From NCBI RefSeq assembly GCF_051903065.1, contig NZ_CP178438.1: a stretch of 64,000 bases of DNA. One strand, given 5' to 3'. The notes under the pieces are model-generated. The model saw only the letters and a program-made list of their open reading frames with translations. It was not told where the DNA came from and made no database searches. Source of the stretch: Escherichia coli (GTDB lineage Bacteria; Pseudomonadota; Gammaproteobacteria; Enterobacterales; Enterobacteriaceae). The translations under genes were made by a program, and so were the position numbers. Positions 2,629 through 63,067 of this stretch are shown here, piece after piece (within the stretch, counting starts at the first letter, position 1; each line of letters begins with the position of its first letter).

Positions 2629-8180
<5,552 letters not shown>

Positions 8181-8182
8181 CA

Positions 8183-9331: not shown

Positions 9332-9410
9332 GGTGTGTTTATTTATCGCGGGCATAAAAAAACCCTTACTAACCGAAGCCCGGCGTTCAGGGTTATTGCG
9401 CTAGAAGAAC

Positions 9411-9941
9411 TTATTTATTCTTGGCGCGCTCGAAGGAGGCAACGATTTCAGCTTTAGCGGCTTCTGCGTTTTCCCAACCTTCAACTTTCACCCACTTGCC
9501 TTTTTCGAGGTCTTTGTAGTGCTCGAAGAAATGAGCGATCTGTGCTTTCAGCAGCTCTGGCAGATCGTTAACGTCTTTAATGTGATCGTATTCTTTGCTC
9601 AGCTTGGTGTGCGGAACAGCAATCAGTTTCGCATCTTCACCGGCTTCGTCGGTCATTTTCAGAACGCCAACCGGACGGCAACGGATCACAGAACCCGGCT
9701 GCAGCGGGTACGGAGTCGGGACCAGTACGTCAACCGGGTCACCGTCCAGAGACAGGGTGTGGTTGATGTAACCGTAGTTGCACGGATAGAACATCGCGGT
9801 GGACATGAAGCGGTCAACGAACAGTGCGCCGCTCTCTTTGTCGATTTCGTATTTGATCGGATCTGCGTTAGCCGGGATCTCAATAACCACGTAGATGTCT
9901 TCCGGCAGATCTTTACCCGCAGGGACGTTGAGTAAGCTCAT
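9411..9941 (-). CDS. ppa: inorganic pyrophosphatase
   Basis: 176-aa [27 protein letters not shown]... classic family I PPase. Confidence 0.95.
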
Positions 9942-10250
9942 GTCTGTTTCCTTTAAAAATATGTGGCAAACAAGTGCCGAGTATTATAGCCAACTCGCGC
10001 CGAATGTCTTCGCTTGTTTTCGTCTTCATTTTCCTTTTTCGCCAGTTTTAAGACGGTATGCAGAGCAGGAAAATCCATAACCGTAGCCGCATTTTTCATA
10101 GTGAGATGAAAGCGATTACAAACTTGTGATTAACGTTTTATTTACTTTTTTGAAGTGTGATGTAACGCAATCCGTTACATAACGAATTGTCTATAGTTTT
10201 TTCGCGAACATCTTTTCACCAATAATAATTACTCCGACGAGGACAACCCT

Positions 10251-11207
10251 ATGTGGAAACGCTTACTTGTAGTCTCTGCAGTCTCGGCAGCCATGTCGTC
10301 TATGGCGTTGGCCGCTCCATTAACCGTAGGATTTTCGCAGGTCGGATCGGAATCCGGCTGGCGCGCCGCAGAAACCAATGTGGCGAAAAGTGAGGCAGAA
10401 AAACGCGGAATTACGCTGAAAATTGCCGATGGTCAGCAAAAGCAGGAAAACCAGATTAAAGCGGTACGTTCCTTCGTTGCACAAGGGGTGGATGCGATCT
10501 TTATCGCTCCGGTGGTCGCGACAGGTTGGGAACCGGTATTAAAAGAGGCGAAAGATGCCGAAATCCCGGTCTTCTTGCTCGACCGTTCCATCGATGTGAA
10601 AGACAAATCTCTCTATATGACCACCGTTACTGCCGACAACATCCTCGAAGGTAAGTTGATCGGTGACTGGCTGGTAAAAGAAGTGAATGGCAAACCATGC
10701 AACGTGGTGGAGCTGCAGGGCACCGTTGGGGCCAGCGTCGCCATTGACCGTAAGAAAGGCTTTGCCGAAGCCATTAAGAATGCGCCAAATATCAAAATCA
10801 TCCGCTCGCAGTCAGGTGACTTCACCCGCAGTAAAGGCAAAGAAGTCATGGAGAGCTTTATCAAAGCGGAAAACAACGGCAAAAACATCTGCATGGTTTA
10901 CGCCCATAACGACGACATGGTGATTGGTGCAATTCAGGCAATTAAAGAAGCGGGCCTGAAACCGGGCAAAGATATCCTCACGGGTTCCATTGACGGTGTA
11001 CCGGACATCTACAAAGCGATGATGGATGGCGAAGCGAACGCCAGTGTTGAACTGACGCCGAACATGGCGGGACCCGCTTTTGACGCGCTGGAGAAATACA
11101 AAAAAGACGGCACCATGCCTGAAAAGCTGACGTTAACCAAATCCACCCTTTACCTGCCTGATACCGCAAAAGAAGAGTTAGAGAAGAAGAAAAATATGGG
11201 GTATTGA
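10251..11207 (+). CDS. ytfQ: periplasmic sugar-binding protein of ABC transporter (galactofuranose-binding YtfQ)
   Basis: 318-aa ORF with signal peptide and periplasmic binding protein fold; first gene of ytfQRT-yjfF cluster. Confidence 0.9.
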   Translation: MWKRLLVVSAVSAAMSSMALAAPLTVGFSQVGSESGWRAAETNVAKSEAEKRGITLKIADGQQKQENQIKAVRSFVAQGVDAIFIAPVVATGWEPVLKEAKDAEIPVFLLDRSIDVKDKSLYMTTVTADNILEGKLIGDWLVKEVNGKPCNVVELQGTVGASVAIDRKKGFAEAIKNAPNIKIIRSQSGDFTRSKGKEVMESFIKAENNGKNICMVYAHNDDMVIGAIQAIKEAGLKPGKDILTGSIDGVPDIYKAMMDGEANASVELTPNMAGPAFDALEKYKKDGTMPEKLTLTKSTLYLPDTAKEELEKKKNMGY

Positions 11208-11214
11208 GGGTTGC

Positions 11215-11335
11215 TATGCCTGATGCCGATTCGTAGGCCGGATAAGGCGCTCGCGCCGCATCCGGCGATGGTGCACTGAAGCCTGATGCGACGCTTACCG
11301 CGTCTTATCATGCCTACTGGGAGCACGCTTTACAC
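11215..11335. repeat. REP/BIME palindromic elements
   Basis: gtaggccggataaggcg...gccgcatccggc and gcctgatgcgacgc...gtcttatcatgcctac motifs. Confidence 0.6.
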
Positions 11336-11346
11336 CGGGGGAAACC

Positions 11347-12849
11347 ATGACGACCGACCAACACCAGGAGATCCTCCGCACCGAAGGATTAAGTAAATTT
11401 TTCCCCGGCGTCAAAGCGTTAGACAACGTTGATTTCAGCCTGCGCCGTGGCGAAATCATGGCGCTGCTCGGTGAAAACGGGGCGGGAAAATCAACGCTAA
11501 TCAAAGCATTAACTGGTGTATACCACGCCGATCGCGGCACCATCTGGCTGGAAGGCCAGGCTATCTCACCGAAAAATACCGCCCACGCGCAACAACTCGG
11601 CATTGGCACCGTCTATCAGGAAGTCAACCTGCTACCCAATATGTCGGTCGCTGATAATCTATTTATAGGCCGCGAACCCAAACGCTTCGGCCTTCTACGC
11701 CGCAAAGAGATGGAAAAGCGCGCCACCGAACTGATGGCATCTTACGGTTTCTCCCTCGACGTGCGCGAACCGCTCAACCGCTTTTCAGTCGCGATGCAGC
11801 AAATCGTCGCTATTTGCCGGGCTATCGATCTCTCTGCCAAAGTGCTGATCCTCGATGAACCCACCGCCAGTCTCGACACCCAGGAAGTGGAGTTACTGTT
11901 TGACCTGATGCGTCAGTTGCGCGATCGCGGCGTCAGCCTGATCTTTGTCACTCACTTTCTCGATCAGGTCTATCAGGTCAGCGATCGGATCACCGTCTTA
12001 CGCAACGGCAGTTTCGTAGGCTGTCGGGAAACGTGCGAGCTACCGCAGATCGAACTGGTAAAAATGATGCTGGGGCGCGAGCTGGATACCCACGCGCTAC
12101 AGCGTGCCGGGCGAACATTGTTGAGCGACAAACCCGTTGCCGCGTTCAAAAATTACGGCAAAAAAGGAACGATCGCACCGTTTGATCTCGAAGTACGCCC
12201 CGGCGAGATCGTCGGTCTGGCTGGCTTGCTGGGATCAGGACGTACCGAAACCGCCGAAGTGATCTTCGGTATCAAACCTGCTGACAGCGGCACTGCGTTG
12301 ATCAAAGGCAAACCGCAAACCCTGCGATCGCCACATCAGGCGTCGGTACTGGGCATCGGCTTCTGCCCGGAAGACAGGAAAACCGATGGCATCATCGCCG
12401 CCACCTCGGTACGGGAAAATATCATCCTCGCTCTCCAGGCCCAGCGCGGCTGGCTACGACCCATTTCCCGCAAAGAGCAGCAAGAGATTGCCGAACGCTT
12501 TATCCGCCAGCTTGGCATTCGCACACCTTCAACTGAACAACCGATTGAATTTCTCTCTGGCGGCAATCAGCAAAAAGTGTTGCTTTCACGTTGGCTACTG
12601 ACCCGACCGCAATTTCTGATCCTTGATGAGCCAACTCGCGGCATTGATGTTGGTGCCCACGCCGAGATCATCCGCCTGATTGAAACGCTATGCGCCGATG
12701 GTCTGGCGCTGCTGGTGATCTCCTCCGAACTGGAAGAACTGGTGGGCTATGCCGACCGGGTGATCATCATGCGCGATCGCAAACAGGTGGCGGAGATCCC
12801 GCTGGCAGAGCTTTCCGTTCCGGCGATCATGAATGCCATTGCGGCGTAA
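11347..12849 (+). CDS. ytfR: ABC transporter ATP-binding protein with duplicated ATPase domains
   Basis: 500-aa ORF with two Walker A motifs (GENGAGKST, GLLGSGRTE) and LSGG signature. Confidence 0.9.
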   Translation: MTTDQHQEILRTEGLSKFFPGVKALDNVDFSLRRGEIMALLGENGAGKSTLIKALTGVYHADRGTIWLEGQAISPKNTAHAQQLGIGTVYQEVNLLPNMSVADNLFIGREPKRFGLLRRKEMEKRATELMASYGFSLDVREPLNRFSVAMQQIVAICRAIDLSAKVLILDEPTASLDTQEVELLFDLMRQLRDRGVSLIFVTHFLDQVYQVSDRITVLRNGSFVGCRETCELPQIELVKMMLGRELDTHALQRAGRTLLSDKPVAAFKNYGKKGTIAPFDLEVRPGEIVGLAGLLGSGRTETAEVIFGIKPADSGTALIKGKPQTLRSPHQASVLGIGFCPEDRKTDGIIAATSVRENIILALQAQRGWLRPISRKEQQEIAERFIRQLGIRTPSTEQPIEFLSGGNQQKVLLSRWLLTRPQFLILDEPTRGIDVGAHAEIIRLIETLCADGLALLVISSELEELVGYADRVIIMRDRKQVAEIPLAELSVPAIMNAIAA

Positions 12850-12859
12850 GGAGAACAGT

Positions 12860-13885
12860 GTGATGCCTCAATCTCTCCCGGACACTACGCCGCCGAAAAG
12901 GCGCTTTCGCTGGCCAACGGGAATGCCGCAGCTGGCGGCACTGTTGCTGGTGCTGCTGGTCGATAGCCTGGTGGCCCCGCATTTCTGGCAGGTGGTGCTT
13001 CAGGATGGGCGTTTGTTCGGTAGCCCTATCGACATTCTTAATCGCGCCGCCCCCGTTGCGCTACTGGCGATTGGTATGACGCTGGTGATCGCAACAGGTG
13101 GGATTGATCTCTCCGTAGGGGCGGTGATGGCTATCGCCGGAGCCACAACGGCTGCGATGACGGTCGCGGGATTCAGCCTGCCGATTGTTTTGTTAAGCGC
13201 CCTGGGCACCGGCATCCTGGCGGGATTGTGGAACGGCATACTGGTAGCGATCCTCAAAATTCAGCCGTTTGTCGCCACTCTGATCCTGATGGTCGCCGGG
13301 CGCGGCGTGGCGCAACTGATCACCTCCGGACAGATCATCACGTTTAACTCGCCGGATCTCTCATGGTTCGGCAGTGGATCGCTGTTGTTCCTGCCAACGC
13401 CGGTCATTATCGCGGTGCTGACGCTTATCCTGTTCTGGCTGTTGACCCGCAAAACGGCGCTGGGGATGTTTATCGAAGCCGTTGGTATCAACATTCGGGC
13501 GGCAAAAAATGCCGGGGTAAACACGCGGATCATCGTCATGCTTACCTACGTGTTGAGCGGGCTGTGTGCGGCGATTGCGGGCATTATCGTGGCGGCGGAT
13601 ATTCGCGGTGCCGATGCCAACAACGCCGGATTATGGCTGGAGCTGGACGCCATTCTCGCGGTGGTGATTGGCGGTGGTTCGCTGATGGGCGGACGTTTTA
13701 ACCTACTGCTTTCGGTGGTGGGGGCGCTGATTATTCAGGGGATGAACACCGGAATTTTGCTTTCGGGCTTTCCGCCAGAGATGAACCAGGTGGTGAAAGC
13801 GGTAGTGGTGCTTTGCGTGCTGATTGTCCAGTCGCAACGCTTTATCAGTCTGATTAAAGGAGTGCGTAGCCGTGATAAAACGTAA
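12860..13885 (+). CDS. ytfT: ABC transporter permease
   Basis: Multi-TM ORF; start set at GTG 12860 to give 341 aa (ATG 12863 also possible; tool ORF starts at 12833). Confidence 0.85.
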   Translation: MMPQSLPDTTPPKRRFRWPTGMPQLAALLLVLLVDSLVAPHFWQVVLQDGRLFGSPIDILNRAAPVALLAIGMTLVIATGGIDLSVGAVMAIAGATTAAMTVAGFSLPIVLLSALGTGILAGLWNGILVAILKIQPFVATLILMVAGRGVAQLITSGQIITFNSPDLSWFGSGSLLFLPTPVIIAVLTLILFWLLTRKTALGMFIEAVGINIRAAKNAGVNTRIIVMLTYVLSGLCAAIAGIIVAADIRGADANNAGLWLELDAILAVVIGGGSLMGGRFNLLLSVVGALIIQGMNTGILLSGFPPEMNQVVKAVVVLCVLIVQSQRFISLIKGVRSRDKT

Positions 13886-47880: not shown

Positions 47881-47997
47881 TTAGCAAAGTGTGCTTCGTT
47901 CATTCCTGAAAAATTATGAAAATCCAATATATTGCAGTGGTGTAGGCATGATAAGACGCGCCAGCGTCGCATCAGGCAAAGACAAATCGCACCTGGC

Positions 47998-49500
47998 TTA
48001 CCTTTTTCTCCCCCCCAGCAAACTCCCCAACATTCCACGCACAATCTGATTCGTCACCTGGCGGGCGGCGCTTTTGGCCATTGTTCGCACCACACCATCT
48101 TTCTTCCCGCCGCGTGGTCCGGTAGTGCCAAACAAAATATCCTTCAATCCACCAAGAATGCCGTCATCCACCGCCACCTCTTTCCCTTTCACGGCAGGAT
48201 TATTTTGCTGCTCGGTGCTTGCCTGTACGCCTTTTTGCAACATCTCATAGGCGGATTCCCGGTCCACGTCATCCTCGTACTTGCCATACACCGGAGAGTG
48301 ATTAATCAAGCCATTACGCTCATCTTCCGTCACCGGTCCCATCCGCGAACAAGGCGCAATCACCATCGCCCGTTCCACCACAGAAGGACTTCCTTTTGCA
48401 TCGAGAAACGAGATTAACGCCTCGCCGGTCCCCAGTTCCTGGATTGCCTTTTCGGTATCAAATGCAGGGTTGGGGCGCATGGTTTGCGCCGCAGCTTTTA
48501 CCGCTTTCTGATCTTTGGGCGTAAAAGCCCGCAAAGCGTGCTGAACGCGATTACCGAGCTGGCCGAGCACATTATCCGGAATATCAGACGGGTTTTGCGA
48601 AACGAACCAGACGCCCACGCCTTTTGAGCGAATAAGCCTTATCACCTGCTCAATCTTATCCAGCAGTACCTGCGGGGCATCGTTAAACAGCAGATGTGCT
48701 TCGTCGAAGAAAAACACCAGTTTTGGTTTCTCCAGATCGCCCGCTTCCGGCAATTGTTCATATAACTCTGAAAGCATCCACAGCAGGCTGGCGGCGTACA
48801 GTTTTGGCATCTGATAAAGCTTCTCGGCGCTGAGGATATTGATAACGCCTTTACCGTTGGCATCGGTGCGCATCCAGTCTTTGATATCCAGCATCGGCTC
48901 ACCAAAGAAGTGTGCTGCGCCTTGCTGTTCCAGCGACAACAGCCCGCGCTGGATGGCACCAACCGATGCGCTACTGATATTTCCGTACTGATTCTGGAAA
49001 GATTTGGCGTTATCGCCGATGTACTGGGTAATCGCCCGCAAATCTTTAAAGTCGAGCAGTAACAGCCCCTGATCGTCAGCAATGCGGAAGATGATATTCA
49101 GCACGCCAGATTGCACATCGTTGAGATTCAACAGCCGCGCCAGCAACAGCGGCCCCAGGTCTGAAACCGTCGCCCGCACCGGATGGCCTTTCTCGCCAAA
49201 GATATCCCACACCACCACCGGATTGGCATGCGGTTGCCAGTCATTGACGCCGATATTTTTAAGCCTTGCGAGCAGTTTTTCCGATGCCGTTCCTGCCTGC
49301 GCGATGCCGGTCAGATCGCCTTTCACATCGGCCATAAACACCGGAACACCGATTTCCGATAGAGACTCCGCCAGTTTTTGCAGCGTGACAGTTTTACCCG
49401 TCCCCGTTGCGCCAGTAATCAGCCCGTGACGGTTAGCCATTCCCGGCAGTAAAAATAGTTCTGTGTCCGGCGTGCGGGCAATTAACAGGGGTTCGCTCAT
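47998..49500 (-). CDS. yjgR: DUF853-family P-loop NTPase YjgR
   Basis: [10 protein letters not shown]...GATGTGKT Walker A; 500 aa from ATG 49500. Confidence 0.9.
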
Positions 49501-49629
49501 GAGATTTCCTCCAGTTTCCTGCCTGGAGTATAGGCAACGGCTGCGCACTCTTCACCGCTAAATTCAGCAGATTGCGAGACGCCTTCCAAAGAGATTTAAG
49601 TGCCGGGCGACAGGCACCCGGCAAAGGGA

Positions 49630-50649
49630 TCAGAAGTCGGCTTTCAGGACCACTCGGTAGCGCGCTTTACCATCGCGCACATGCTTGATGGCGTCGTTAA
49701 TTTTCGACATCGGGAACAGTTCGGTAGTCGGCGCAACCTTGCTGCGGGCGGCAAAGCGCATCAGCTTACGCAACTCATAAGGCGTGCCGGTAGCAGAACC
49801 AGAGACGCTGCGGTCGCCCGCAATTAACGTAAAGGCCGGAACAGACAGCGGCGTGAGGACCGCACCGACCGTATGGAAATTACCGCCATAGGTCAGCGCC
49901 TCAAAATAGGGCTGCCAGTCGAGGCTGACGTTGACGGTGTTGATAATGAGATCAAACTGCCCCGCCAGTGCTTTCAGTGCCTGTGGATCGCGGCTATTCA
50001 CCACTTTATCGGCACCCATCGCCAGCACTTCCTGCTCTTTCGCCGGATTAGAACTAAAGGCCGTCACCTCGCATCCCATTGCGTGCAGAAGTTTTATAGC
50101 GATATGCCCCAGCCCGCCAATACCAATTACCCCAACGCGGCTGGTAGCAGTGATATGGTGCATCAACAGTGGTTTAAAGACCGTGATACCGCCGCACAAC
50201 AGCGGCCCGGCGGACTCGATATCAATATTTTCTGGCAGTGGAATCACCCATTGCCAGTCCGCACGCAACTTCTCGGCAAAGCCACCGCGATTCATAATCG
50301 TCGGCACCGCACCTTGCTCGCAGTTGATCTGATTACCGCTAATACAGGCGTCGCAGTGACCACAGCTACGCGCCGTCCAGCCAATCCCGACACGCTGACC
50401 GACCTGCAAACCTTTATCCTGCGCGGCGCTCCCGAGTGCCACCACGCGACCAATCACCTCATGCCCGGCAACCAGCGGATATTGTGAAAATCCCCATTCG
50501 TTATCGATCATCGACAGATCGGAATGGCAGATCCCGCAGTAATCCACCTGCACTTCAACATCTTGTGGCTTCAGTTCACCGGGATCGTACTCATAAACTT
50601 CCAGTTCGCCGCCTGCTTCTTTTGCGGCATAGCTTTTTATCATCGACAT
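49630..50649 (-). CDS. ahr: NADPH-dependent aldehyde reductase Ahr (Zn-dependent alcohol dehydrogenase family)
   Basis: [10 protein letters not shown]...GHEVIG...GIGGLGH motifs; 339 aa from ATG 50649. Confidence 0.9.
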
Positions 50650-50844
50650 TTTTTGGTCCTTCTCTGGTGTTGTCTGGGAAGTGTAGAGCATGGCAGGGCG
50701 GGGTGCCTGGAGTGTGACAAAGGTTACACATCGCTGTATGCAATGCTGAAAATTTCAGCACTTAGCAAAGTGGGTGCAAGCTGGCGCTTGCATGGTGGCG
50801 TGCGACAGGTATAATCCACAACGTTTTCCGCATACCTCTTCAGT

Positions 50845-50929
50845 GCCGAAGTGGCGAAATCGGTAGACGCAGTTGATTCAAAATCAACCGTAGAAATACG
50901 TGCCGGTTCGAGTCCGGCCTTCGGCACCA
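50845..50929 (+). tRNA. leuX: tRNA-Leu (anticodon CAA)
   Basis: 85-nt sequence gccgaagtggcgaaatcggtagacgcagttgattCAAaatcaacc...ggttcgagtccggccttcggcacca with D-arm, long variable arm, T-arm and CCA end. Confidence 0.95.
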
Positions 50930-51115: not shown

Positions 51116-52381
51116 ATGGCATTAACAGATATCAAAGTCAGAGCAGCCAAGCCAACGGATAAGCAATATAAGCTGACTGATGGTGGCGGTATGCATCTGC
51201 TTGTCCATCCAAATGGTTCTAAGTACTGGCGTTTGCAGTACCGTTATGAGGGAAAGCAAAAAATGCTGGCACTTGGGGTTTATCCTGAAATCACACTAGC
51301 GGATGCCAGAGTACGTCGTGACGAGGCGCGTAAGCTGCTTGCGAATGGCGTCGATCCGGGAGACAAAAAGAAAAATGATAAGGTTGAACAGAGTAAAGCA
51401 CGAACCTTTAAAGAAGTCGCGATTGAGTGGCATGGCACCAATAAAAAGTGGTCTGAAGATCACGCCCATCGTGTGCTAAAAAGTCTGGAAGATAATCTTT
51501 TTGCAGCGCTTGGTGAACGTAATATCGCTGAGTTAAAAACTCGAGATTTATTAGCACCCATTAAGGCCGTAGAAATGTCTGGACGTCTTGAAGTGGCCGC
51601 TCGTCTTCAGCAGCGCACTACAGCCATCATGCGCTATGCAGTGCAAAGTGGGTTAATTGATTATAACCCGGCACAAGAGATGGCTGGGGCGGTTGCTTCC
51701 TGTAATCGACAACATCGTCCCGCGCTTGAATTAAAGCGCATCCCTGAGTTGCTTACAAAAATAGATAGCTATACTGGTAGGCCGCTAACCCGATGGGCGA
51801 CAGAACTCTCTTTGCTGATCTTTATTCGGTCCAGTGAGCTGCGTTTTGCTCGTTGGTCAGAGATCGATTTCGAAGCGTCTATATGGACTATCCCACCGGA
51901 GCGGGAGCCTATTCCTGGAGTGAAACATTCCCATAGAGGCTCAAAAATGCGTACAACGCATCTAGTGCCTCTTTCAACGCAAGCTCTTGCAATTTTAAAG
52001 CAGATAAAACAGTTTTGTGGGGCCCATGACTTGATATTTATTGGTGATCACGATTCGCACAAACCCATGAGTGAGAATACGGTAAATAGTGCGTTACGGG
52101 TCATGGGGTATGATACAAAAGTAGAGGTTTGTGGTCATGGCTTTCGAACAATGGCCTGTAGTTCATTGGTCGAATCAGGTTTGTGGTCTCGTGATGCTGT
52201 TGAACGTCAGATGAGCCACATGGAGCGAAATTCAGTGAGGGCCGCGTATATCCATAAAGCAGAGCATCTGGAAGAACGCCGCTTGATGCTACAATGGTGG
52301 GCCGATTTTCTGGATGCAAACAGAGAAAAATTTATCAGTCCATTTGAATATGCAAAGATTAATAATCCATTAAAACAGTAA
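51116..52381 (+). CDS. P4-type tyrosine integrase (IntB-like) marking a leuX-integrated island
   Basis: 421-aa ORF immediately 3' of a tRNA gene, N-terminal MALTDIKVRAAKP...KYWRL typical of P4 integrases, C-terminal catalytic region with conserved HxxR and Tyr; RBS agggaggg. Confidence 0.9.
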   Translation: MALTDIKVRAAKPTDKQYKLTDGGGMHLLVHPNGSKYWRLQYRYEGKQKMLALGVYPEITLADARVRRDEARKLLANGVDPGDKKKNDKVEQSKARTFKEVAIEWHGTNKKWSEDHAHRVLKSLEDNLFAALGERNIAELKTRDLLAPIKAVEMSGRLEVAARLQQRTTAIMRYAVQSGLIDYNPAQEMAGAVASCNRQHRPALELKRIPELLTKIDSYTGRPLTRWATELSLLIFIRSSELRFARWSEIDFEASIWTIPPEREPIPGVKHSHRGSKMRTTHLVPLSTQALAILKQIKQFCGAHDLIFIGDHDSHKPMSENTVNSALRVMGYDTKVEVCGHGFRTMACSSLVESGLWSRDAVERQMSHMERNSVRAAYIHKAEHLEERRLMLQWWADFLDANREKFISPFEYAKINNPLKQ

Positions 52382-52704
52382 TCATCCCGGGCAAATGCCC
52401 GGGAACTTACTCCATGAATATTTTCTTTGTTAAAAAGGCAAAACGATATTAACTGATGTATTAAATGTTTACCGGATTGCTCCCTGCAGGTGGATTATCA
52501 GAATCCGCAGTTATTCGTTATTTATATATATTCAATAAAAAGAAACATCATAAAAAATCCCGCACCCACAGGGTGATGCGGGATAACTGACGTAAGGAAT
52601 GTTACCGGGATTTGGTGGTCCCTTGTGCTGATATGAATACAGGTTCTATTCTATACAGAATCCTTTTCAGTACAAGAGACTGTATTACAGTTTGCCATAT
52701 ATGA

Positions 52705-54204
52705 TTACCTGTGGTCCGGAAGAATAAGTGGCTGCGGTTTCAGACTGTCTGCCGGCACATTTTTCTCTCCGTTAAAAACCATAACGGGTTCATTATCTTC
52801 GTCTGTCAGCGGATTGAATGGCGGTATATTTTCGGTACGAATACCGGTCAGCCACTGAAAAATGCCTGCGAAATTACGGGCACTGATTTTCCTGCTGACG
52901 GACTGATGAGACGTGATGTCACTGGCGGTAATAATCAGGGGAACGCTGTAGCCCCCCTGCACATGACCATCATGATGAACAGGATTAGCACTGTCGCTGA
53001 CCGACAGCCCATGGTCAGAAAAGTAAAGCATTGCAAAGTGACGGGAATGCCGGCGAAGGATACCATCAAGCTGACCGAGAAAGTTATCCAGTTTACTGAT
53101 GCTGGCGAGGTAACAGGCAATCTTTCGGGGATACTGCTCCAGGTAATAATTCGGCCAGGAGTTAAGTCGGTCACACGGATTCGGATGAGAGCCAATCATG
53201 TGCAGGAAAATCACCTTCGGCGAGGATTTATCCGCCAGCGCACGTTCTGTTTCCTGTAACAACAACATGTCATCCGTTTTACGGGAAGCGAAGCTGCCTT
53301 TCTTGAGGAAAACGGTATGCTCCGCATCAGAAGCAATAACAGAGATGCGTGTGTCATGCTCTCCCAGTTTTCCCTGATTGGATATCCACCATGTGCTGTA
53401 TCCTGCTTTTGCTGCCAGCGCCACCACGTTGTTGCCGGAGTCAGGGTTCTGCTCATAGTCATAAATCAGTGTCCGGCTCAGGGAAGGTACGGTACTGGCT
53501 GCTGTCGATGTATAGCCGTCAATAAATAAACCGGGAGCAGTATTCAGCCACGGCGTGGTTGGCACGGGATAGCCATATACCGACATATAATCCCTGCGCA
53601 CACTCTCACCAGTAACGATAACAATCGTGTCATACAACGGCACACCCGGCAGGATTTTCCAGTTATCAGCCCCGTGCTGACTCAGTTGTTTATAACGCTG
53701 CATTTCACGCAATGTGTCAGTTGTCCCCACAACAGTTCCTTTAACCATCCGCAACGGCCAGCTGTTTACAGAGCATAATACGAATAGCAGCAGTGCCAGC
53801 CAGTTACGGTGACCGCGGTGGTGTGTCCGCCAGAAAATCACCATGAATACCAGAATCGCGGCACTGACCAGAAAATGATAAACAGGAATCATCCCGGTAA
53901 ACTCTGCAGCCTCATCAGCCGTGGTCTGCAGCAACGCGACAATAAAACTGTTGTTGATTTTACCGTACGTCATACCCGCAGGCGCATACAGTGCACAACA
54001 GAACAGAAATAACAGCGCTGTAATGGATGTGAGGGTATTTCTGTGTGCAAGGAGAAGAAGGAGAAACAGAAGCAGCACATTTCCTGTGGCATTCTTCTCA
54101 GTGTATCCGCATGCAATTGTGGTTATTGCAGAAACAACAAAAAAGAATAAAAACAATAAAATCCGGGGTGTGTTTCCCGGACAAAACAGTTTTCTGATAT
54201 TCAT
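52705..54204 (-). CDS. sulfatase-family inner membrane protein, phosphoethanolamine transferase-like (EptA/OpgE family; yjgX-like)
   Basis: 499-aa ORF with N-terminal TM helices and C-terminal sulfatase-type domain (HMIGSH...SDHG). Confidence 0.75.
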   Translation of the reverse strand: MNIRKLFCPGNTPRILLFLFFFVVSAITTIACGYTEKNATGNVLLLFLLLLLAHRNTLTSITALLFLFCCALYAPAGMTYGKINNSFIVALLQTTADEAAEFTGMIPVYHFLVSAAILVFMVIFWRTHHRGHRNWLALLLFVLCSVNSWPLRMVKGTVVGTTDTLREMQRYKQLSQHGADNWKILPGVPLYDTIVIVTGESVRRDYMSVYGYPVPTTPWLNTAPGLFIDGYTSTAASTVPSLSRTLIYDYEQNPDSGNNVVALAAKAGYSTWWISNQGKLGEHDTRISVIASDAEHTVFLKKGSFASRKTDDMLLLQETERALADKSSPKVIFLHMIGSHPNPCDRLNSWPNYYLEQYPRKIACYLASISKLDNFLGQLDGILRRHSRHFAMLYFSDHGLSVSDSANPVHHDGHVQGGYSVPLIITASDITSHQSVSRKISARNFAGIFQWLTGIRTENIPPFNPLTDEDNEPVMVFNGEKNVPADSLKPQPLILPDHR

Positions 54205-54363
54205 CGGAGTATATCGACAACATTATGATGAAGAGAACAGGATAATAAAAATCAGAAATTATCTGTAAAACAGATAACAGACAACCCTGCAGTATAATTA
54301 CTGCAGGGTGTTTCCTTTTAATTACAGAAGATAAGTAATTATTATCTTTCAGGAGCAGTTTCG

Positions 54364-55104
54364 TCAGAAGTTATAAGTCACACCAAGCATGATGTCATGA
54401 CTTTTAACATCAACCTCTGATTTATATTTATCGCCCCACTCATCCTTGTAACTCACACTGCTGTCACCTGCATCAATATAGCGATAGCTGAGGTCAAGAG
54501 CGATATCCGGGGTTACGTCATAACGGACACCAGCCCCAAGGCTCCATGCAAAGTTGTCAGCAGAGTCTGAGTGTGACAACGACTCACGCCCACTGTACCC
54601 GTACCCATAATCCCAGGTACTGATACCAGTTGTTTTCTGATGAATTCTGGCGTAACCAATCCCTGCGGATACCCATGGTGTGAATGCACTGTCGTTCCGG
54701 AAGTCATAGTACGTATTCAGCATCAGAGTGTTGACTGACACTTCATTCTTCAGGTCATCACGCCAGTAACCACCTGACCAGCTGTCTTTATCTACGTTAT
54801 ACTTCGAATCAGCTTTTCCACGCGCGTAAAACTCCAGTTCTGTACGAACCGGAATACTGAACTGCGGATAAAAATCATAACCGGCCGCAATACCGCCACT
54901 GAATACCGTATCATGGTCATCGCCGCCTTTATACTTTGACGTTTCTTCCTCATCTCCTGACAGGAAACGCTGGTCTGAAAGTGACACCACAGAGGCACCG
55001 GCTTTACCGGTCAGATAAAAACCGCTTTTACCTTCCTCAGCACCTGCATTTGCTGCAAATACACAGGCTGCGGCCACCACTGAAACAGCAAAAACCTTTT
55101 TCAT
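54364..55104 (-). CDS. outer membrane beta-barrel protein (OmpA-like transmembrane domain family)
   Basis: 246-aa ORF with signal peptide MKKVFAVSVVAAACVFAANAGA, alternating aromatic/hydrophobic beta-strand pattern and C-terminal ...GVTYNF. Confidence 0.7.
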   Translation of the reverse strand: MKKVFAVSVVAAACVFAANAGAEEGKSGFYLTGKAGASVVSLSDQRFLSGDEEETSKYKGGDDHDTVFSGGIAAGYDFYPQFSIPVRTELEFYARGKADSKYNVDKDSWSGGYWRDDLKNEVSVNTLMLNTYYDFRNDSAFTPWVSAGIGYARIHQKTTGISTWDYGYGYSGRESLSHSDSADNFAWSLGAGVRYDVTPDIALDLSYRYIDAGDSSVSYKDEWGDKYKSEVDVKSHDIMLGVTYNF

Positions 55105-55455
55105 TTCAATTATCTCCGTTATTGCTCCGTTGCTGCAAGCAGTACTCAGTGCATTTTAAAACCCGCCATGCGATAGTCTCAATTGAATAAAATCGATCTA
55201 ATCGATAGATGATATCGATCGTCATTAACCAGAAATTTTTATCGTATTCAGTCAGCACAGATACAACAAATGCATGCCATGCAGACAGTCATACCCGGCA
55301 ACAACAGCAGATGGTTGCTGAGCAAGCAGGGAGTGAGGCTGAATCCCGGGGAAGAAAAAACCTGTAAAATTTGTTTATTCTGCCAGGAGATAAAAGTGAC
55401 GTGTGTTCATGTAACACACCAGGGACGAAAGATGCATGGACTGACAGTTTGGGGG

Positions 55456-56512
55456 GGCTTTGTTGAATAAATCGAACTTTTGCTGAGTTGAAGGATCAGA
55501 TCACGCATCCTCCCGACAACACAGACCATTCCGTGGCAAAGCAAAAGTTCAGAATCACCAACTGGTCCACCTACAACAAAGCTCTCATCAACCGTGGCTC
55601 CCTCACTTTCTGGCTGGATGATGAAGCGATTCAGGCCTGGTATGAGTCGGCAACGCCTTCATCACGAGGAAGGCCCCAGCGCTATTCTGATCTCGCCATC
55701 ACCACCGTTCTGGTGATTAAACGCGTATTCCGGCTGACCCTGCGGGCTGCGCAGGGTTTTATTGATTCCATTTTTGCCCTGATGAACGTTCCGTTGCGCT
55801 GCCCGGATTACACCAGTGTCAGTAAGCGGGCAAAGTCGGTTAATGTCAGTTTCAAAACGTCCACCCGGGGTGAAATCGCACACCTGGTGATTGATTCCAC
55901 CGGGCTGAAGGTCTTTGGTGAAGGCGAATGGAAAGTCAGAAAGCACGGCAAAGAGCGCCGTCGTATCTGGCGAAAGTTGCATCTTGCTGTTGACAGCAAC
56001 ACACATGAAGTTGTCTGTGCAGACCTGTCGCTGAATAACGTCACGGACTCAGAAGCCTTCCCGGGCCTTATCCGGCAGACTCACAGAAAAATCAGGGCAG
56101 CCGCGGCAGACGGGGCTTACGATACCCGGCTCTGTCACGATGAACTGCGCCGCAAAAAAATCAGCGCGCTTATTCCTCCCCGAAAAGGAGCAGGTTACTG
56201 GCCCGGTGAGTACGCAGACCGCAACCGTGCCGTTGCTAATCAGCGGCTGAGCGGAAGCAATGCACGGTGGAAATGGACAACGGAATATAACCGTCGCTCG
56301 ATAGCGGAAACGGCAATGTACAGAATGAAGCAGTTGTTGGGAGATTCACTGACGCTGCGTGACTACGATGGTCAGGTAGCGGAAGCTATGGCCATGGTGC
56401 GTGCGTTGAACAGGATGACAAAGGCTGGGATGCCAGAAAGCGTGCGTATTGCCTGAAAATCCAGCCAGCTACAGGGTCGTTCGCACGAAATCTTATTTAT
56501 TCAACAAAGCCC
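55456..56512 (+). mobile_element. IS903-group insertion sequence (IS5 family), about 1057 bp
   Basis: Left end ggctttgttgaataaatcgaacttttgctgagttgaaggatcag and inverted right end ...tcttatttattcaacaaagcc; single transposase ORF; no flanking 9-bp direct repeat. Confidence 0.85.
55533..56456 (+). CDS. IS903-type transposase (DDE)
   Basis: ORF VAKQKFRITNWSTYNKALINRGSLTFWLDDEAIQAWYE...; start placed at in-frame GTG to give 307 aa (tool ORF begins at TTG 55488). Confidence 0.85.
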   Translation: MAKQKFRITNWSTYNKALINRGSLTFWLDDEAIQAWYESATPSSRGRPQRYSDLAITTVLVIKRVFRLTLRAAQGFIDSIFALMNVPLRCPDYTSVSKRAKSVNVSFKTSTRGEIAHLVIDSTGLKVFGEGEWKVRKHGKERRRIWRKLHLAVDSNTHEVVCADLSLNNVTDSEAFPGLIRQTHRKIRAAAADGAYDTRLCHDELRRKKISALIPPRKGAGYWPGEYADRNRAVANQRLSGSNARWKWTTEYNRRSIAETAMYRMKQLLGDSLTLRDYDGQVAEAMAMVRALNRMTKAGMPESVRIA

Positions 56513-57624
56513 ATACCCCTCTGAAAATCAGTCATCAACTCACCAACACATCTTCTGAAATCTGTATTAAACTTATTGCTTAAATAGATGATATAACACA
56601 TCTTCCATTGCACGGAATCAGCGAAAACTGTCATTCTGGCAATCTTAACAAGATCATTTATCGGTTAATTTTATCAGTAAACAATGGAATATCACACTGA
56701 TAAAATGAACATTCAGGGTAAGATGATAAAATTCACATAAAAAATGCTGAAGATTATTTATTTCATGCAGATAAACGATAAAATACAAGAGAGTATATTT
56801 TTCAGTGTAAGAGTCAATCGTTCATCTCCACTGACGATCACGGTCAGCACATAAACAAAGTGAGTCCTCCTGCTTAGTCATTGCGTATCAGAAACTAAAA
56901 AACAAAAGATTCTGTAAACAACGTGACATTTTTTATGACATTTCCCGAATACAGATATATCAACAAACAGTAGTCAGCGTTGAATTAATAAGTTTTACAG
57001 GGCTATACGTATCTTATAAAACCACTCAACGACCATCATCACCTGACTATTTAGCGGGAGTATCATCTGTATAAATTCCTAAATAATAACACCTGTTATT
57101 AAAATAAGAATGCTGTCAGCAGTAAATTATTAACATAACACCTGTCCACTCTATCTGTTCTTCTAACTCAACCGGCATCGAAAATATTGCCTGATTAGTG
57201 CATCATAGCCTTCTTTTTTCTTTCCCGACCATCAAAACAAATACAACATTTACAACCACACAATAAAACAAAACTAAAACAAAACTAAAACATAAGATTA
57301 ACAACACCAATCAACAGGAAAACACTGAATATTGAGGTGCCCTGTAACCTGGAGAGCGCATACGGCGCATGTGATCAACACAGCCCATTCTTTTCTGTCA
57401 TCCCCCAAATGCAGAACAAACAAGCATAACCTAATGAATATAAAATAAAATATTATTTTTCACCATCATAAAAACATCAATGTATCTTTATATAAAAACA
57501 CTGATAACATGACATAAACATTTAAAAACATAAACAAATCACAACAAAAACATTTGATAATCACTTAGTGACAAAATAAAATTGAGACGATTTTGTTATA
57601 AGAGAGGCGCCATGGAGTGAGATA

Positions 57625-58644
57625 ATGAATAACGAACAGATGCTTATCAAATGCAAAGATCCCCGTAAATGTCGGTTTTATGCTGAATATCTGAATCACA
57701 AATACCCCAATGAATTCCCTCAGTTTGCGCCTGACAACCCACAAAACTGTATCAGAAATGTTAATGCGTTTTTAAAAGAAAAGTATTGTAATACTTCAAA
57801 CAATTCTTTTGGTGTTTTTGGTTCGACTGCAGAAGAAGCTCTCAGCAAAGAAATTAATGAACTTGAAATTATTGCAGGGCAGGCAATACTGCCTGAAGAG
57901 AGTTTTCTCTGGTTGAAAACTGACGAACTTGCGACTTTCTTTACCTGGACTACTATTTATCTGTCGAAGGAAGACCATACAAATTTCCCGGAAATAAACC
58001 ATAATTCATCAGGGATAAAAAACGGAATTGAAGTCAGAAAAAGACGAACAGTTACCGATGAAACGTTAAATACTTACAAAAAAAGTAACCTTCCGGATAA
58101 TCCATCATCCCATAACGAACGAATAAAAGTAATCATTTTATATTTTGATTCCTGTCATTCTTTAATTAATAAAAATGCAAAAAGCATATACCTCGAGGAA
58201 CTCAGGCAGACGTGGCTTAAAAATAAAAGCGCTTGTCAAAAGTTTAAGTGGCTCCTTCCTGACGATGATGAAATGTGTCAGTGGTTCTGGACAAGACTGA
58301 AACAAAAACAGGATGAAACACATCCGGTACATAACCCGGTGACCCGGTGGTTCATACCATCTTCAACGAAAGAATATTATCTTGCCTCTCTCGTCGCCTT
58401 TGCTTTATGGAAAGAGGCACCTGATACCATTGAACTGTTCAGAACACGCATAAATCATGCCTGGCATCAAAAAAAACAAAAAGACAAATATCGGAATGAT
58501 GGTAAAAAGGCTATTAATATACATATAAGAAGCAATGCGAAAGAAATGCTTGATGAACTCAGAACTGTTTACGGTCTGAGAACAGGAGAGTTTTTTGAAA
58601 TGCTGATTACAGAAAAATATCTTGAACACAAGCGAAGGAAGTAA
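57625..58644 (+). CDS. hypothetical protein, AT-rich orphan ORF
   Basis: 339-aa ORF with RBS ggagtgag upstream; lysine/asparagine-rich, several Cys/His; no family recognised from sequence alone. Confidence 0.5.
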   Translation: MNNEQMLIKCKDPRKCRFYAEYLNHKYPNEFPQFAPDNPQNCIRNVNAFLKEKYCNTSNNSFGVFGSTAEEALSKEINELEIIAGQAILPEESFLWLKTDELATFFTWTTIYLSKEDHTNFPEINHNSSGIKNGIEVRKRRTVTDETLNTYKKSNLPDNPSSHNERIKVIILYFDSCHSLINKNAKSIYLEELRQTWLKNKSACQKFKWLLPDDDEMCQWFWTRLKQKQDETHPVHNPVTRWFIPSSTKEYYLASLVAFALWKEAPDTIELFRTRINHAWHQKKQKDKYRNDGKKAINIHIRSNAKEMLDELRTVYGLRTGEFFEMLITEKYLEHKRRK

Positions 58645-58695
58645 TTCATTACCTGTTACATTCTAAATAATCTCAGACAGATATTATCTCCGTGA

Positions 58696-58731
58696 ATCCC
58701 CCGCCACCTTTCCGGTGCGCGGGGTTTTGTC
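58696..58731 (+). terminator. putative rho-independent terminator downstream of the 339-aa ORF
   Basis: GC-rich inverted repeat ccccgc...gcgggg followed by ttttgtctttttt. Confidence 0.45.
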
Positions 58732-58753
58732 TTTTTTCACCGGGAATACATGT

Positions 58754-59581
58754 ATGAATCCGTCTGATGCCATTGAGGCAATTGAAAAACCGCTCTCCTC
58801 CCTGCCTTACTCACTTTCCCGTCACATCCTGGAACATCTGCGCAAACTCACCAGCCACGAACCCGTGATTGGCATTATGGGGAAAAGCGGGGCCGGTAAA
58901 TCCTCACTCTGTAATGCACTGTTTCAGGGGGAGGTCACCCCGGTCAGTGATGTTCACGCCGGCACCCGGGAAGTGCAGCGCTTCCGTCTGAGTGGCCATG
59001 GTCACAGCATGGTTATCACTGACCTGCCCGGGGTGGGCGAGAGCCGTGACAGGGATGCAGAGTATGAAGCCCTGTACCGTAACATTCTGCCTGAACTTGA
59101 CCTGGTACTGTGGCTGATTAAAGCCGATGACCGTGCCTTGTCTGTGGATGAGTATTTCTGGCGACACATTCTGCACCGGGGACATCAGCAGGTGCTGTTT
59201 GTGGTGACGCAGGCCGATAAAACGGAGCCCTGCCATGAATGGGATATGGCCGGTATTCAGCCTTCTCCCGCACAGGCACAGAACATTCGCGAAAAAACGG
59301 AGGCGGTATTCCGTCTGTTCCGGCCCGTACATCCGGTTGTGGCCGTATCGGCTCGCACCGGCTGGGAACTGGATACGCTGGTCAGTGCGCTCATGACAGC
59401 GCTTCCCGACCATGCCGCCAGTCCCCTGATGACCCGCCTGCAGGACGAGCTGCGCACGGAATCTGTCCGCGCTCAGGCCCGTGAACAGTTTACCGGTGCG
59501 GTGGACCGGATATTTGACACGGCGGAGAGCGTCTGTATTGCCTCTGTTGCCCGCGCGGTATGGAACTGGATTTTCTTCTGA
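58754..59581 (+). CDS. YfjP/YeeP/YkfA-family small GTPase (prophage-like island backbone GTPase)
   Basis: P-loop GIMGKSGAGKSSLCNALF, G3 DLPGVGE, G4-like TQADK, C-terminal ...ARAVWNWIFF resembling K-12 YfjP/YkfA from memory; start at ATG 58754 (tool ORF starts at GTG 58715). Confidence 0.8.
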   Translation: MNPSDAIEAIEKPLSSLPYSLSRHILEHLRKLTSHEPVIGIMGKSGAGKSSLCNALFQGEVTPVSDVHAGTREVQRFRLSGHGHSMVITDLPGVGESRDRDAEYEALYRNILPELDLVLWLIKADDRALSVDEYFWRHILHRGHQQVLFVVTQADKTEPCHEWDMAGIQPSPAQAQNIREKTEAVFRLFRPVHPVVAVSARTGWELDTLVSALMTALPDHAASPLMTRLQDELRTESVRAQAREQFTGAVDRIFDTAESVCIASVARAVWNWIFF

Positions 59582-59701
59582 ACCCGGTGGTGATGCACCA
59601 GACTCTTGTTACAGATTTTTAACTCCATGAAAACACAATGCAAACGCAGCCATACCCGGGTTGTCCCCTTGTGTTGTGTTTTCCAGATTAATAGAATGCA
59701 T

Positions 59702-59720
59702 CGATCGTTATAAACGATCG
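59702..59720. promoter_or_regulatory. perfect inverted repeat (cgatcgtt-ata-aacgatcg) about 60 bp upstream of the dynamin-like gene
   Basis: 8-bp arms with 3-bp spacer in the 200-bp gap between the two GTPase genes; candidate operator. Confidence 0.3.
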
Positions 59721-59780
59721 TTTGTGGTAAATGACCTCCTCCGTGGTTGTCATGAAAATGCGTCTCAGGAAGGTTAAATA

Positions 59781-62165
59781 ATGCACGAAAAGAACATCGC
59801 CCTGCTTTGTGATGAAGCCGACCGACTTTTGCAACTGAACATTAATCTGCTCCGGCAAATGGTTGATGAACCGGATGTGTTATCTGACAGTAAGAACGAA
59901 AACAGACTGCTTTTCGATAAACAGAAAGCACTGAAAAGAATTGAGGAGCTGGAGGGCGAACAAATCAAAACCGCCCGCAGGGAGATGGTGCTGGCTGTTG
60001 TCGGCACGATGAAAGCAGGTAAATCAACTACCATCAACGCCATTGTGGGGCAGGAAATTCTGCCTAACCGTAACCGCCCCATGACCTCTGTACCGACGCT
60101 CATCCGCCACGTTCCCGGAAAAACTGAGCCGGTCCTCCATCTGGAACATATTCAGCCCGTCCGCAATTTATTAAGCACACTGCAACAAAAACTCGACACC
60201 CCGGCAGGACAGCAAGTCGCACAGACCCTGCAGCAAACCGGGGATACCTGCGAACTGCTGGATATTCTGGCAAATGATGGCTGGCTCAAAAATGAATACC
60301 ACGGGGAGGAGGAAATCTTTACCGGACTGGCATCGTTAAACGATCTGGTTCGCCTTGCTGCGGCAATGGGGAGTGAGTTTCCTTTTGATGAATACGCAGA
60401 AGTGCAGAAACTGCCGGTGATCGACGTGGAATTCAGCCATCTGGTGGGGATGGATGCATGCCAGGGAACACTCACACTGCTGGATACCCCCGGCCCTAAT
60501 GAGGCCGGACAACCGCAGATGGAAGTGATGATGCGGGATCAACTGCAGAAAGCCTCTGCGGTGCTGGCGGTGATGGATTACACCCAGATGAACTCAAAAG
60601 CGGATGAAGACGTCCGTAAAGAGCTTAATGCCATTGCTGACGTATCAGCCGGCCGCCTGTTTGTGCTGGTCAATAAATTTGATGAGAAAGACCGCAATGG
60701 CGATGGGGCAGATGCCGTACGCCAGAAAGTTCCGGCAATGCTGAACAGTGATGTGCTGCCCGCCTCCCGCGTTTATCCAGGCTCATCACGTCAGGCGTAC
60801 CTGGCTAACCGTGCGCTTCATGAGTTACGGAAAAACGGAACCCTTCCTGTTGATGAAGCCTGGGTCGATGATTTTGTCAGGGAAGCCTTCGGTCGCATGA
60901 AAAAAGAATACGTCTGTAAAGACAGTGAAATGGCAACCGAAGGGGCGACAGACCTGTGGGAAGGTTCACTTATCGATCAACTGATAACGGAAGTCATACA
61001 GAGCTCCCATTCCAGAGCGGCGGCACTGGCGGTTGATTCTGCCGCCGCAAAACTGATGCAGAATGCGGAAAATGTCAGCGAATATCTGTCATTACGCCAT
61101 CAGGGGCTACAGCAAAGCATTCAGTCACTGCAGGCGCATATCTCCAGCCTGCTGGCGGATATCCGGGAAATCGCGGACTGTCAGGAGCAGGTGACCGCAG
61201 ATGTCAGAATGGCTATGGAGGAGATCGATACTAAAACCCGGGAATTACTGACGGGGGTCTGCACCTCACTGGAAGAGGAGCTGAATGACTATTTCAGAAG
61301 CGGTAAACGCAAAGAACAGCAAATGCTGGAGGAAGAAAATTCAGCGCAGCCCCGGGAGAGAAACGCATTCGCTTTCTTTCACGATATTTTCGGAACCGGA
61401 AATCAGCATGACAGGATGCGGGACTTTGATCCGGACAGCCCCGAAATAAAATTCAGTGATCGCAGGGAAGCCCTTGAACTGATGACGCAAATCGAATCGA
61501 CCGTGACCAGCCTGCACCGTGAGGCTGAAGCACAGTTCCGTCCTGAACTGGAAAAAATCGTCAGGGGTATTGAAACAGGTTTTCGTGGTACGGCCCTGTA
61601 CGCCACAGAAAATATTGCCGGACGCATCAATGCCCGTCTGGAGGATGAAGGTTTCACTGTAAAAATCAGTTTTCCGGCAGTCAGCCAGTTACAGACCCGG
61701 CTCGCAGTAAAAACAAATCTGAGCGCGCTTATGGAGGAAAGAACGGAGACCGTCACTCGTCGCTGTCGACAGGATGGTGTCTGGGGTACGCTTTGTCGAT
61801 GGGCAAACACCAGTGACTGGGGCTGGAAAGAGTACAGTGTGGATGTGAGCCGCAGCGTGATCAATATCAACAAGGTCAGAGAGGAAGTGATGTCACTGAC
61901 CCGGGCATATTTCGGGGAGCTGCAGGCATCCATTGAGCAGGATATTAACCAGCCCGTCCGCCAGGAAATCGATGCCTTTTTCTGCGCATTCAGGGAGAAA
62001 GTTGAACAACTGCGTAACACGCTGATTCAGAGCTCTGAAGATCGTAAACGCGATCAGCAGGCGCAGGAACGGCTTACCGGGCGACTTCAGGCATTAAATG
62101 AAAGGGTTCCTGAGCTCATTACTGACAGTAAGGCGCTGAGGGAAGAGCTGGAGACAATGCTGTGA
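59781..62165 (+). CDS. bacterial dynamin-like large GTPase
   Basis: 794-aa ORF; G1 VVGTMKAGKSTTINAIVG (res 73-90), G3 LLDTPGPNE, G4 VLVNKFDEKD, followed by about 500 aa of helical/coiled-coil stalk-like sequence; RBS caggaagg 7 nt upstream. Confidence 0.8.
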   Translation: MHEKNIALLCDEADRLLQLNINLLRQMVDEPDVLSDSKNENRLLFDKQKALKRIEELEGEQIKTARREMVLAVVGTMKAGKSTTINAIVGQEILPNRNRPMTSVPTLIRHVPGKTEPVLHLEHIQPVRNLLSTLQQKLDTPAGQQVAQTLQQTGDTCELLDILANDGWLKNEYHGEEEIFTGLASLNDLVRLAAAMGSEFPFDEYAEVQKLPVIDVEFSHLVGMDACQGTLTLLDTPGPNEAGQPQMEVMMRDQLQKASAVLAVMDYTQMNSKADEDVRKELNAIADVSAGRLFVLVNKFDEKDRNGDGADAVRQKVPAMLNSDVLPASRVYPGSSRQAYLANRALHELRKNGTLPVDEAWVDDFVREAFGRMKKEYVCKDSEMATEGATDLWEGSLIDQLITEVIQSSHSRAAALAVDSAAAKLMQNAENVSEYLSLRHQGLQQSIQSLQAHISSLLADIREIADCQEQVTADVRMAMEEIDTKTRELLTGVCTSLEEELNDYFRSGKRKEQQMLEEENSAQPRERNAFAFFHDIFGTGNQHDRMRDFDPDSPEIKFSDRREALELMTQIESTVTSLHREAEAQFRPELEKIVRGIETGFRGTALYATENIAGRINARLEDEGFTVKISFPAVSQLQTRLAVKTNLSALMEERTETVTRRCRQDGVWGTLCRWANTSDWGWKEYSVDVSRSVININKVREEVMSLTRAYFGELQASIEQDINQPVRQEIDAFFCAFREKVEQLRNTLIQSSEDRKRDQQAQERLTGRLQALNERVPELITDSKALREELETML

Positions 62166-63067
62166 CTTCACCATTTATTCAACAAATTGCTGATAACCGG
62201 GTATGTCAGGTACTCACCTGTCTTCCTGAAAAATTTGTGGTTGATTTCGCAAACGGAATCGATGTTGCACAGGAGCATATCCGCACGGCCGGAGAGCGCA
62301 CGTTCTTCCGGCGTTTAAAAGAGGGGATGACCGGCGAAGGCGCTGCACGGCAGAATGCCATCAATGCTTCGCTTGCACAGGGCGTTGAGGCGTCCCTGCG
62401 CTGGCTGACGGAGCTGACAACGTCACTTGCCACCACAAACTACGCGATTACCCGGGTAAACGACAGGGTCAGTTCACTGGTCAGTGATACTGCCAGGCTG
62501 GCGCATTATTCGGCTGACACGCGGGAGCAGTTACTCACCCTGGCCGATCAGGTTCACCAGAAACTGAATCATCTTGAAGAAAAACTCCACCGTGTTGACC
62601 AGGTTCAGCGGGCGCAGTTACATCTTGAGCAGATATTCTCATGGTGGAGCGCCGGGCGATATGCGTCATTTTCCCCTGCCGGACGTTGTTATGTGGCACT
62701 TGAAGAGCTTCGCTGGGGCGCGTTTGGTGATGTGATACGCCAGGGCGAAACAGGCCAGGTTAACCAGCTACTGGATATTCTCAGACATAAAGCATTAACG
62801 CAGATGGCACAGGAGAGTGGCGGTAGTGCAACCGTGCGTCTGAACACTCTGGACTGGCTTGGTGGTCAGGGCCGGGAGCAGGCAGATAACGAGTGGCATG
62901 ACGCGATTAACTGGCTGGGGGACTGGTGCAGTGAAGAGCAGCATCCGGTGATCTGGTCAACCACGCAGGCTGCAGAACACTTACCGGTTCGCATGCCTCG
63001 CCTCTGCTCTGCAGAACGCCTCTCTGAAAGTATGGTCGATGAAATATTTCAGAAGGGGGCAGCATGA
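62162..63067 (+). CDS. hypothetical protein of unknown function, translationally coupled to flanking genes
   Basis: 301-aa ORF whose GTG start overlaps the upstream stop (GTGA) and whose stop overlaps the downstream ATG (ATGA); predicted helical middle region. Confidence 0.55.
   Translation: MTSPFIQQIADNRVCQVLTCLPEKFVVDFANGIDVAQEHIRTAGERTFFRRLKEGMTGEGAARQNAINASLAQGVEASLRWLTELTTSLATTNYAITRVNDRVSSLVSDTARLAHYSADTREQLLTLADQVHQKLNHLEEKLHRVDQVQRAQLHLEQIFSWWSAGRYASFSPAGRCYVALEELRWGAFGDVIRQGETGQVNQLLDILRHKALTQMAQESGGSATVRLNTLDWLGGQGREQADNEWHDAINWLGDWCSEEQHPVIWSTTQAAEHLPVRMPRLCSAERLSESMVDEIFQKGAA

Follow-up and report, generated by a model that had tools for sequence, protein, structure and literature searches.

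The idn cassette of Escherichia coli encodes the regulator IdnR, the L-idonate/5-ketogluconate/gluconate transporter IdnT, the 5-ketogluconate reductase IdnO, the L-idonate dehydrogenase IdnD, and the thermosensitive gluconokinase IdnK. In K-12 MG1655 this GntII locus (idnK and idnDOTR; b4264-b4268) is chromosomal, and the RefSeq annotation (NC_000913.3) gives yjgR, idnR, idnT, idnO, idnD, idnK, ahr, and leuX in order. The K-12 arrangement given in a preliminary description of the present locus, idnR-idnT-idnO-idnD-idnK between yjgR and ahr, is thus correct, and yjgR and ahr are not neighbors in MG1655, where the five idn genes intervene. Variation at this locus has been published for ST131, in which idnK is absent from JJ1886 (H30) and S250 (H22) and present in SE15 (H41), and strains without idnK still grow on gluconate, through gntK (PMC5369007). 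The leuX tRNA integration hotspot is defined as the interval from ahr to uxuA in those passages of bioRxiv 10.1101/2020.03.26.007484 and PMC2617782 that cite Lescat 2009 and Touchon 2009. Furthermore, a region of strong phylogenetic incongruence, ~200 kb in size and centered on leuX (K-12 4421-4618 kb) includes the idn site (PMC2617782). Beyond the ST131 paper and general papers on the leuX hotspot, no dedicated survey of idn distribution was found in the literature.

Structure of the yjgR-ahr junction

The window, that is the whole 64-kb stretch of E. coli DNA analyzed here, carries pepA, lptF, lptG, and yjgR in the same order as K-12 upstream of the junction. The features of the junction, in window positions, are as follows.

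47998-49500, minus strand: yjgR, HerA-like C-terminal domain/DUF853 P-loop ATPase of 500 aa (open reading frame; Pfam HerA_C, 844 bits)
49501-49539, minus strand: 39-bp yjgR leader with ribosome-binding site (K-12 BLAST match ends at 49539; alignments)
49540-49629, no strand assigned: 90-bp segment particular to the idn-less allele (no K-12 idn counterpart; orthologous in E. albertii and C. werkmanii)
49588-49621, minus strand: predicted intrinsic terminator of ahr (terminator scan match 49619-49598; RNA fold)
49630-50649, minus strand: ahr (yjgB), NADPH-dependent aldehyde reductase of 339 aa (NCBIfam NF047908 AldhRedAhr, 553 bits against a cutoff of 470; RefSeq annotation)
50845-50929, plus strand: leuX, tRNA-Leu(CAA), integration hotspot (ARAGORN)
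51116-52381, plus strand: P4-type tyrosine integrase, intact, with which the leuX island opens (PRK09692 integrase domain of NCBIfam, E 2e-77; annotation of the GDSC2BY4G locus, 99.4% identical to the window)

Amino acid identity between the window and K-12 was 98.4% for YjgR and 99.4% for Ahr, and yjgR is annotated by RefSeq on identical DNA in NZ_AP045789.1. The mechanically called open reading frame of ahr is 14 codons longer upstream (window 50650-50691), giving 353 aa from an ATG at 50691; RefSeq places the start at 50649 (339 aa), and the NCBIfam model match begins at residue 15 of the longer frame. The yjgR-ahr spacer, described earlier as about 130 bp of non-coding DNA, measures 129 bp (49501-49629) and contains no credible open reading frame, only chance frames of at most 75 aa. 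None of idnK, idnD, idnO, idnT, and idnR lies between yjgR and ahr in the window, and a tblastn search of the 64 kb with the K-12 proteins returned no idn orthologue, only paralogues of 21-27% identity elsewhere in the window.

Alignment with K-12 by BLAST confirmed that a 5,087-bp idn segment is absent from the window. Positions 47901-49539 aligned with K-12 to 39 bp upstream of the yjgR start codon, and the match resumed at 49630, from the ahr stop codon onward; between these breakpoints the unmatched sequence amounted to 5,087 bp in K-12 (8104-13190 of the K-12 locus, L001) versus 90 bp in the window (49540-49629). The window therefore shares the chromosomal address of the K-12 GntII locus, with flanks 95-98% identical, but lacks the entire 5,087-bp cassette and carries instead 90 bp that include the ahr terminator hairpin. 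This hairpin is missing from K-12, in which idnK and ahr are convergent with stop codons only 3 bp apart.

The hairpin (49598-49621) was found by both terminator scan and RNA fold directly 3' of the ahr stop codon on the ahr-sense strand; in the predicted structure, 9 bp pair in a G+C-rich stem (UGCCGGGUG/CGCCCGGCA) around a loop of 5 nt, with a U-rich tail (CUUAAAUCUCUUU) after it. This stem-loop at the ahr-proximal end of the spacer most likely terminates ahr transcription. At the other end, the 39-bp yjgR leader is common to idn-less and idn+ alleles and is kept in E. albertii and Citrobacter according to the alignments. The conserved 39 bp include a -10-like hexamer recognized by eye (TATACT) with no convincing -35. 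At the scan threshold the spacer yielded no sigma-70 promoter for yjgR, which leaves its regulatory interpretation incomplete.

Distribution of the empty and idn-containing alleles

Complete genomes of E. coli (5,426) were used to estimate how common each arrangement is. A contiguous yjgR-ahr junction was present in 3,212 of these (59%) by a 1.6-kb junction-spanning probe, and a contiguous spacer in 3,217 by a 131-bp spacer-centered probe, both at ≥80% coverage. The K-12 idn cassette was present in 2,055 of the 5,426 (38%), and ~150 genomes carried other alleles at the slot. Examples of idn-less genomes include O157:H7, ST131 strain 81009, and environmental isolates, and examples of idn+ genomes include K-12, BL21, and CFT073; in all four idn+ E. 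coli loci that were opened, idn lay between yjgR and ahr. The idn-less junction of O157:H7, ST131 81009, many other strains, and E. albertii NBRC 107761 has a spacer of 129-132 bp like that of the window, and the spacer of O157:H7 TR01 is 100% identical to the window over 131 bp. Differences between the window and other idn-less E. coli junctions are limited to allelic point differences. The precise yjgR-ahr allele of the window was found in identical form in just two genomes of the collection (23CRST027 and 23CRST031), the next best match being 98.2%.

The idn-less state is a real and ordinary one, the majority state in E. coli, and already known through the published variability of idnK. The ST131 report describes the same polymorphism at the level of gene content (PMC5369007); it differs from the present case in that only idnK was undetected and the other gluconate genes were stated to be present, whereas all five idn genes are absent from the window. 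ST131 strain 81009, which was opened here, has a contiguous empty junction like the window. The absence had been interpreted as a strain-level presence/absence polymorphism beside leuX. The polymorphism itself is upheld, with both states occurring among the 5,426 genomes and leuX situated 195 bp past ahr, while an absence specific to the strain is not, idn-less genomes making up 59% of the sample. A recent loss in this strain is improbable, because most E. coli lack idn at the slot and so do E. albertii and C. werkmanii.

Two further forms of the locus were encountered. A third allele, in ~140 complete genomes, has most of ahr deleted, leaving a 236-bp frameshifted remnant (L003, NZ_CP080066.1, 8982-9507), and the yjgR-proximal spacer of NZ_CP080066.1 is only 83% identical to that of the window. 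In NZ_CP116925.1 (L004, 8395-9322), the RefSeq annotation between yjgR and ahr consists of a LacI-family pseudogene and a 'hypothetical protein'. The only candidate for a 'decaying idn' intermediate, this locus was discarded, the ~900 bp being homopolymer-rich assembly noise; the insert resembles an artefact of unpolished long-read assembly at a locus that contains idn, and not a biological intermediate.

Comparison was extended to at least six close Enterobacteriaceae, a thin outgroup sample with no Salmonella and no E. fergusonii among the matches listed. The slot is empty in E. albertii and C. werkmanii. Citrobacter sp. FP75 carries idnK-idnD-idnO-idnT-idnR in the yjgR-ahr slot with the left junction as in K-12, and its idn proteins are 80-96% identical to those of E. 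coli, compared with 91-94% for the flanking core proteins. Enterobacter cloacae, Pseudocitrobacter faecalis, and Enterobacter sp. Ag1 hold ~1.8 kb in the slot, which in E. cloacae and P. faecalis is occupied by a single Dak1+Dak2 gene (ATP-dependent dihydroxyacetone kinase-like, 548-558 aa):

L008 8217-9863: Dak1+Dak2 gene, Enterobacter cloacae DSM 26481
L009 8225-9901: Dak1+Dak2 gene, Pseudocitrobacter faecalis

In Salmonella enterica, idn is presumably also located at the yjgR-ahr position. Judging by these alignments, the empty allele seems to have arisen once, and so does the idn allele, although each is present in two genera.

Diversity of the slot and its relation to the leuX hot region

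As stated in the preliminary description, the locus is adjacent to the leuX hotspot, with leuX at 50845-50929 followed by the P4-type integrase at 51116-52381. The idn slot and the hotspot are neighbors and both fall within the ~200-kb region of elevated recombination, but ahr separates the slot from leuX, and the slot has no integrase, tRNA target, or repeats. Their contents also differ, as the slot holds metabolic cassettes (idn, and the Dak kinase in other genera) and the leuX hotspot holds integrative islands. The idn slot is a separate variable site within the leuX hot region and not part of the leuX island, because it is on the far side of ahr and without integrase, transposase, or flanking repeats. 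Neither direct nor inverted repeats were found at the ends of the K-12 idn segment (L001 positions 8104 and 13190), and the K-12 annotation of the cassette lists the five idn genes only, with no mobility genes. The integrase, transposase, and flanking repeats of an integrative island or transposon are thus all lacking from the idn cassette, and its lower G+C content (47.3% versus 54-56% in the flanks) is the sole sign of a foreign origin.

The leuX island of the window was surveyed over 51116-63067. Its integrase (51116-52381) and a phosphoethanolamine transferase (52705-54204) are the intact counterparts of the K-12 pseudogenes intB and yjgX; next come genes for an outer-membrane protein (54364-55104) and an IS5-family transposase (55488-56456) and, at 58.7-63 kb, those for a GTPase, a dynamin-family protein, and an RdcB-family protein. 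From yjgR through the leuX island, the window and GDSC2BY4G are 99.4% identical. In 23CRST027 (L002, NZ_AP045789.1, 14355-25601) the segment comprising yjgR, spacer, and ahr is 100% identical to the window, and a different island is present at leuX, with a type I restriction-modification system and McrBC in place of the integrase/phosphoethanolamine transferase island. The same flank next to another island indicates that island content is uncoupled from the adjoining core flank.

The genes on either side of the slot are unusually variable, with pairwise nucleotide differences of 3-6.7% for yjgR and ahr among E. coli versus 1-2% in most lptG comparisons (window versus L001 and L085-L090). The idn cassette shows the opposite pattern. 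Among K-12, CFT073, and TCM_B_2 it differs by 0.8-1.0%, compared with 4.6-5.9% for yjgR and ahr in the same strains; per 200 bp, 0-3 differences were counted inside the cassette versus 6-22 in the two flanking genes, and diversity drops right at the cassette junctions. Clustering of yjgR or ahr alleles by idn status was considered and rejected by pairwise comparison: yjgR of K-12 (idn+) differs by 3.2% from that of an idn-less strain and by 5.9% from that of CFT073 (idn+).

Taken together, we consider it very likely that the window carries the 'empty' allele of an old, variable yjgR-ahr slot, with an intact functional spacer, for which the alternative allele has the 5.1-kb GntII cassette in place of 90 bp; the patchy distribution would stem from homologous recombination through the flanks, and the empty state would be the older one. 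The empty allele would comprise the 39-bp yjgR leader with its ribosome-binding site at one end and an ahr-terminating stem-loop at the other. In an ancient insertion, the 5.1-kb idn cassette would have taken the place of 90 bp of this empty-allele spacer, the two alleles would since have been swapped by homologous recombination via the flanking genes in the leuX hot region, and no mobile-element mechanism would be needed for the patchy distribution of idn.

It is also possible, if rather doubtful, that the lineage of the window was once idn+ and that homologous recombination through yjgR and ahr then brought in the empty allele of another E. coli. Consistent with such a replacement, the site lies within the leuX recombination hot region (PMC2617782), yjgR and ahr have very diverse, mosaic alleles that show no correspondence with idn status, both states occur within ST131 (PMC5369007; the 81009 locus), and 23CRST027 combines identical yjgR-ahr DNA with a different leuX island. 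Against this, the window contains no feature that separates replacement from vertical inheritance of the empty allele. A replacement is compatible with the favored explanation, an empty allele of an old slot, and differs from it only in the history of this one lineage.

Origin of the empty allele and implications for sugar acid catabolism

A recent, lineage-specific deletion, in which an idn+ ancestor lost 5.1 kb by an illegitimate or short-homology event and the 129-bp spacer is the scar, would agree with the presence of idn in the slot of K-12 and many other strains, and with the occurrence of other deletions at the site, e.g. the ~140 genomes from which most of ahr is gone. The spacer itself argues otherwise. 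The 90 bp at 49540-49629 have no counterpart in idn+ genomes and are not derived from any idn+ sequence; no idn remnants were found in them by local alignment to the K-12 idn region (scores of 21-23, compared with 21.2 ± 2.0 for shuffled sequences), and nothing derivable from an idn+ allele was recovered, whether from idnR, from idnK, or from the spacers next to them. The same spacer is found in 59% of E. coli, in unrelated lineages (O157:H7, ST131, and environmental strains), as well as in E. albertii and C. werkmanii. The ~130-bp spacer is contiguous and homologous end to end with that of other idn-less genomes; the E. albertii spacer aligns from end to end, 7 of 129 bp being different (~95% identical), unlike the flanking genes, which differ from those of the window by 9-11%, and the C. 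werkmanii spacer is recognizably alignable. By reading of the alignment, both species would have a hairpin at the same position with a different sequence. Furthermore, the spacer holds an organized, predicted hairpin terminator. The spacer is an organized and conserved intergenic region and not a deletion scar, because it is conserved across relatives, contains the hairpin, and has the 39-bp leader common to both alleles. A recent deletion is accordingly very improbable and already largely refuted. Relocation of the idn genes elsewhere in the genome or to a plasmid, conceivable in that 64 kb of the source genome is all that was read, can be dismissed as vanishingly improbable, given that the window holds no idn orthologue, that all 2,070 idn matches among the 5,426 genomes are chromosomal with 0 on plasmids, that the 2,055 idn+ and 3,212 contiguous genomes together fall below 5,426 as expected of mutually exclusive states, and that idn was situated between yjgR and ahr in every one of the idn+ loci opened.

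Within the favored explanation of an old slot with two alleles, the evidence favors the empty state as the older one and idn as an old, derived insertion, because the 90 bp have no idn+ counterpart, the G+C content of the cassette is lower, and its diversity is low and sharply bounded. The idn+ arrangement is also old, because the idn proteins of FP75 have diverged about as much as the flanking core proteins. Conversely, the idn+ arrangement could be ancestral, with a single ancient deletion giving rise to the empty allele; idn at this position in Salmonella enterica would point the same way. Short stretches of the empty spacer that match the left junction of K-12 (CAAAGAGA and CCGGCAAAGRGA) allow for a more complex rearrangement.

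A broader interpretation is offered tentatively. The yjgR-ahr interval may serve the Enterobacteriaceae as a conserved 'cargo slot', where sugar-metabolism cassettes (idn, Dak1/Dak2) have coexisted with an empty allele across genera, and which in E. coli holds one low-diversity (~0.8-1%), low-G+C idn cassette within hyperdiverse yjgR and ahr (4.6-6.7%). If this were true, either one idn allele spread through the species comparatively recently, or presence and absence have long been balanced, in both cases without recognizable mobility machinery.

Carriers of the empty allele, being without IdnT, IdnD, IdnO, IdnK, and IdnR, would be unable to use L-idonate or 5-ketogluconate through GntII. Gluconate utilization would then rest on GntI (gntT/U/K, outside the window), as in the ST131 strains without idnK (PMC5369007). 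In annotation and metabolic modeling, catabolism of L-idonate and 5-ketogluconate should be entered as absent from this strain, and so should the second gluconokinase. K-12 is not a typical E. coli at yjgR-ahr, as 59% of complete genomes are idn-less. Past such bookkeeping the finding matters little, and its mild interest lies in the population genetics of the slot, namely an old, cross-genus presence/absence polymorphism without mobility genes, in which a low-diversity cassette is set against hyperdiverse flanks in the leuX hot region.
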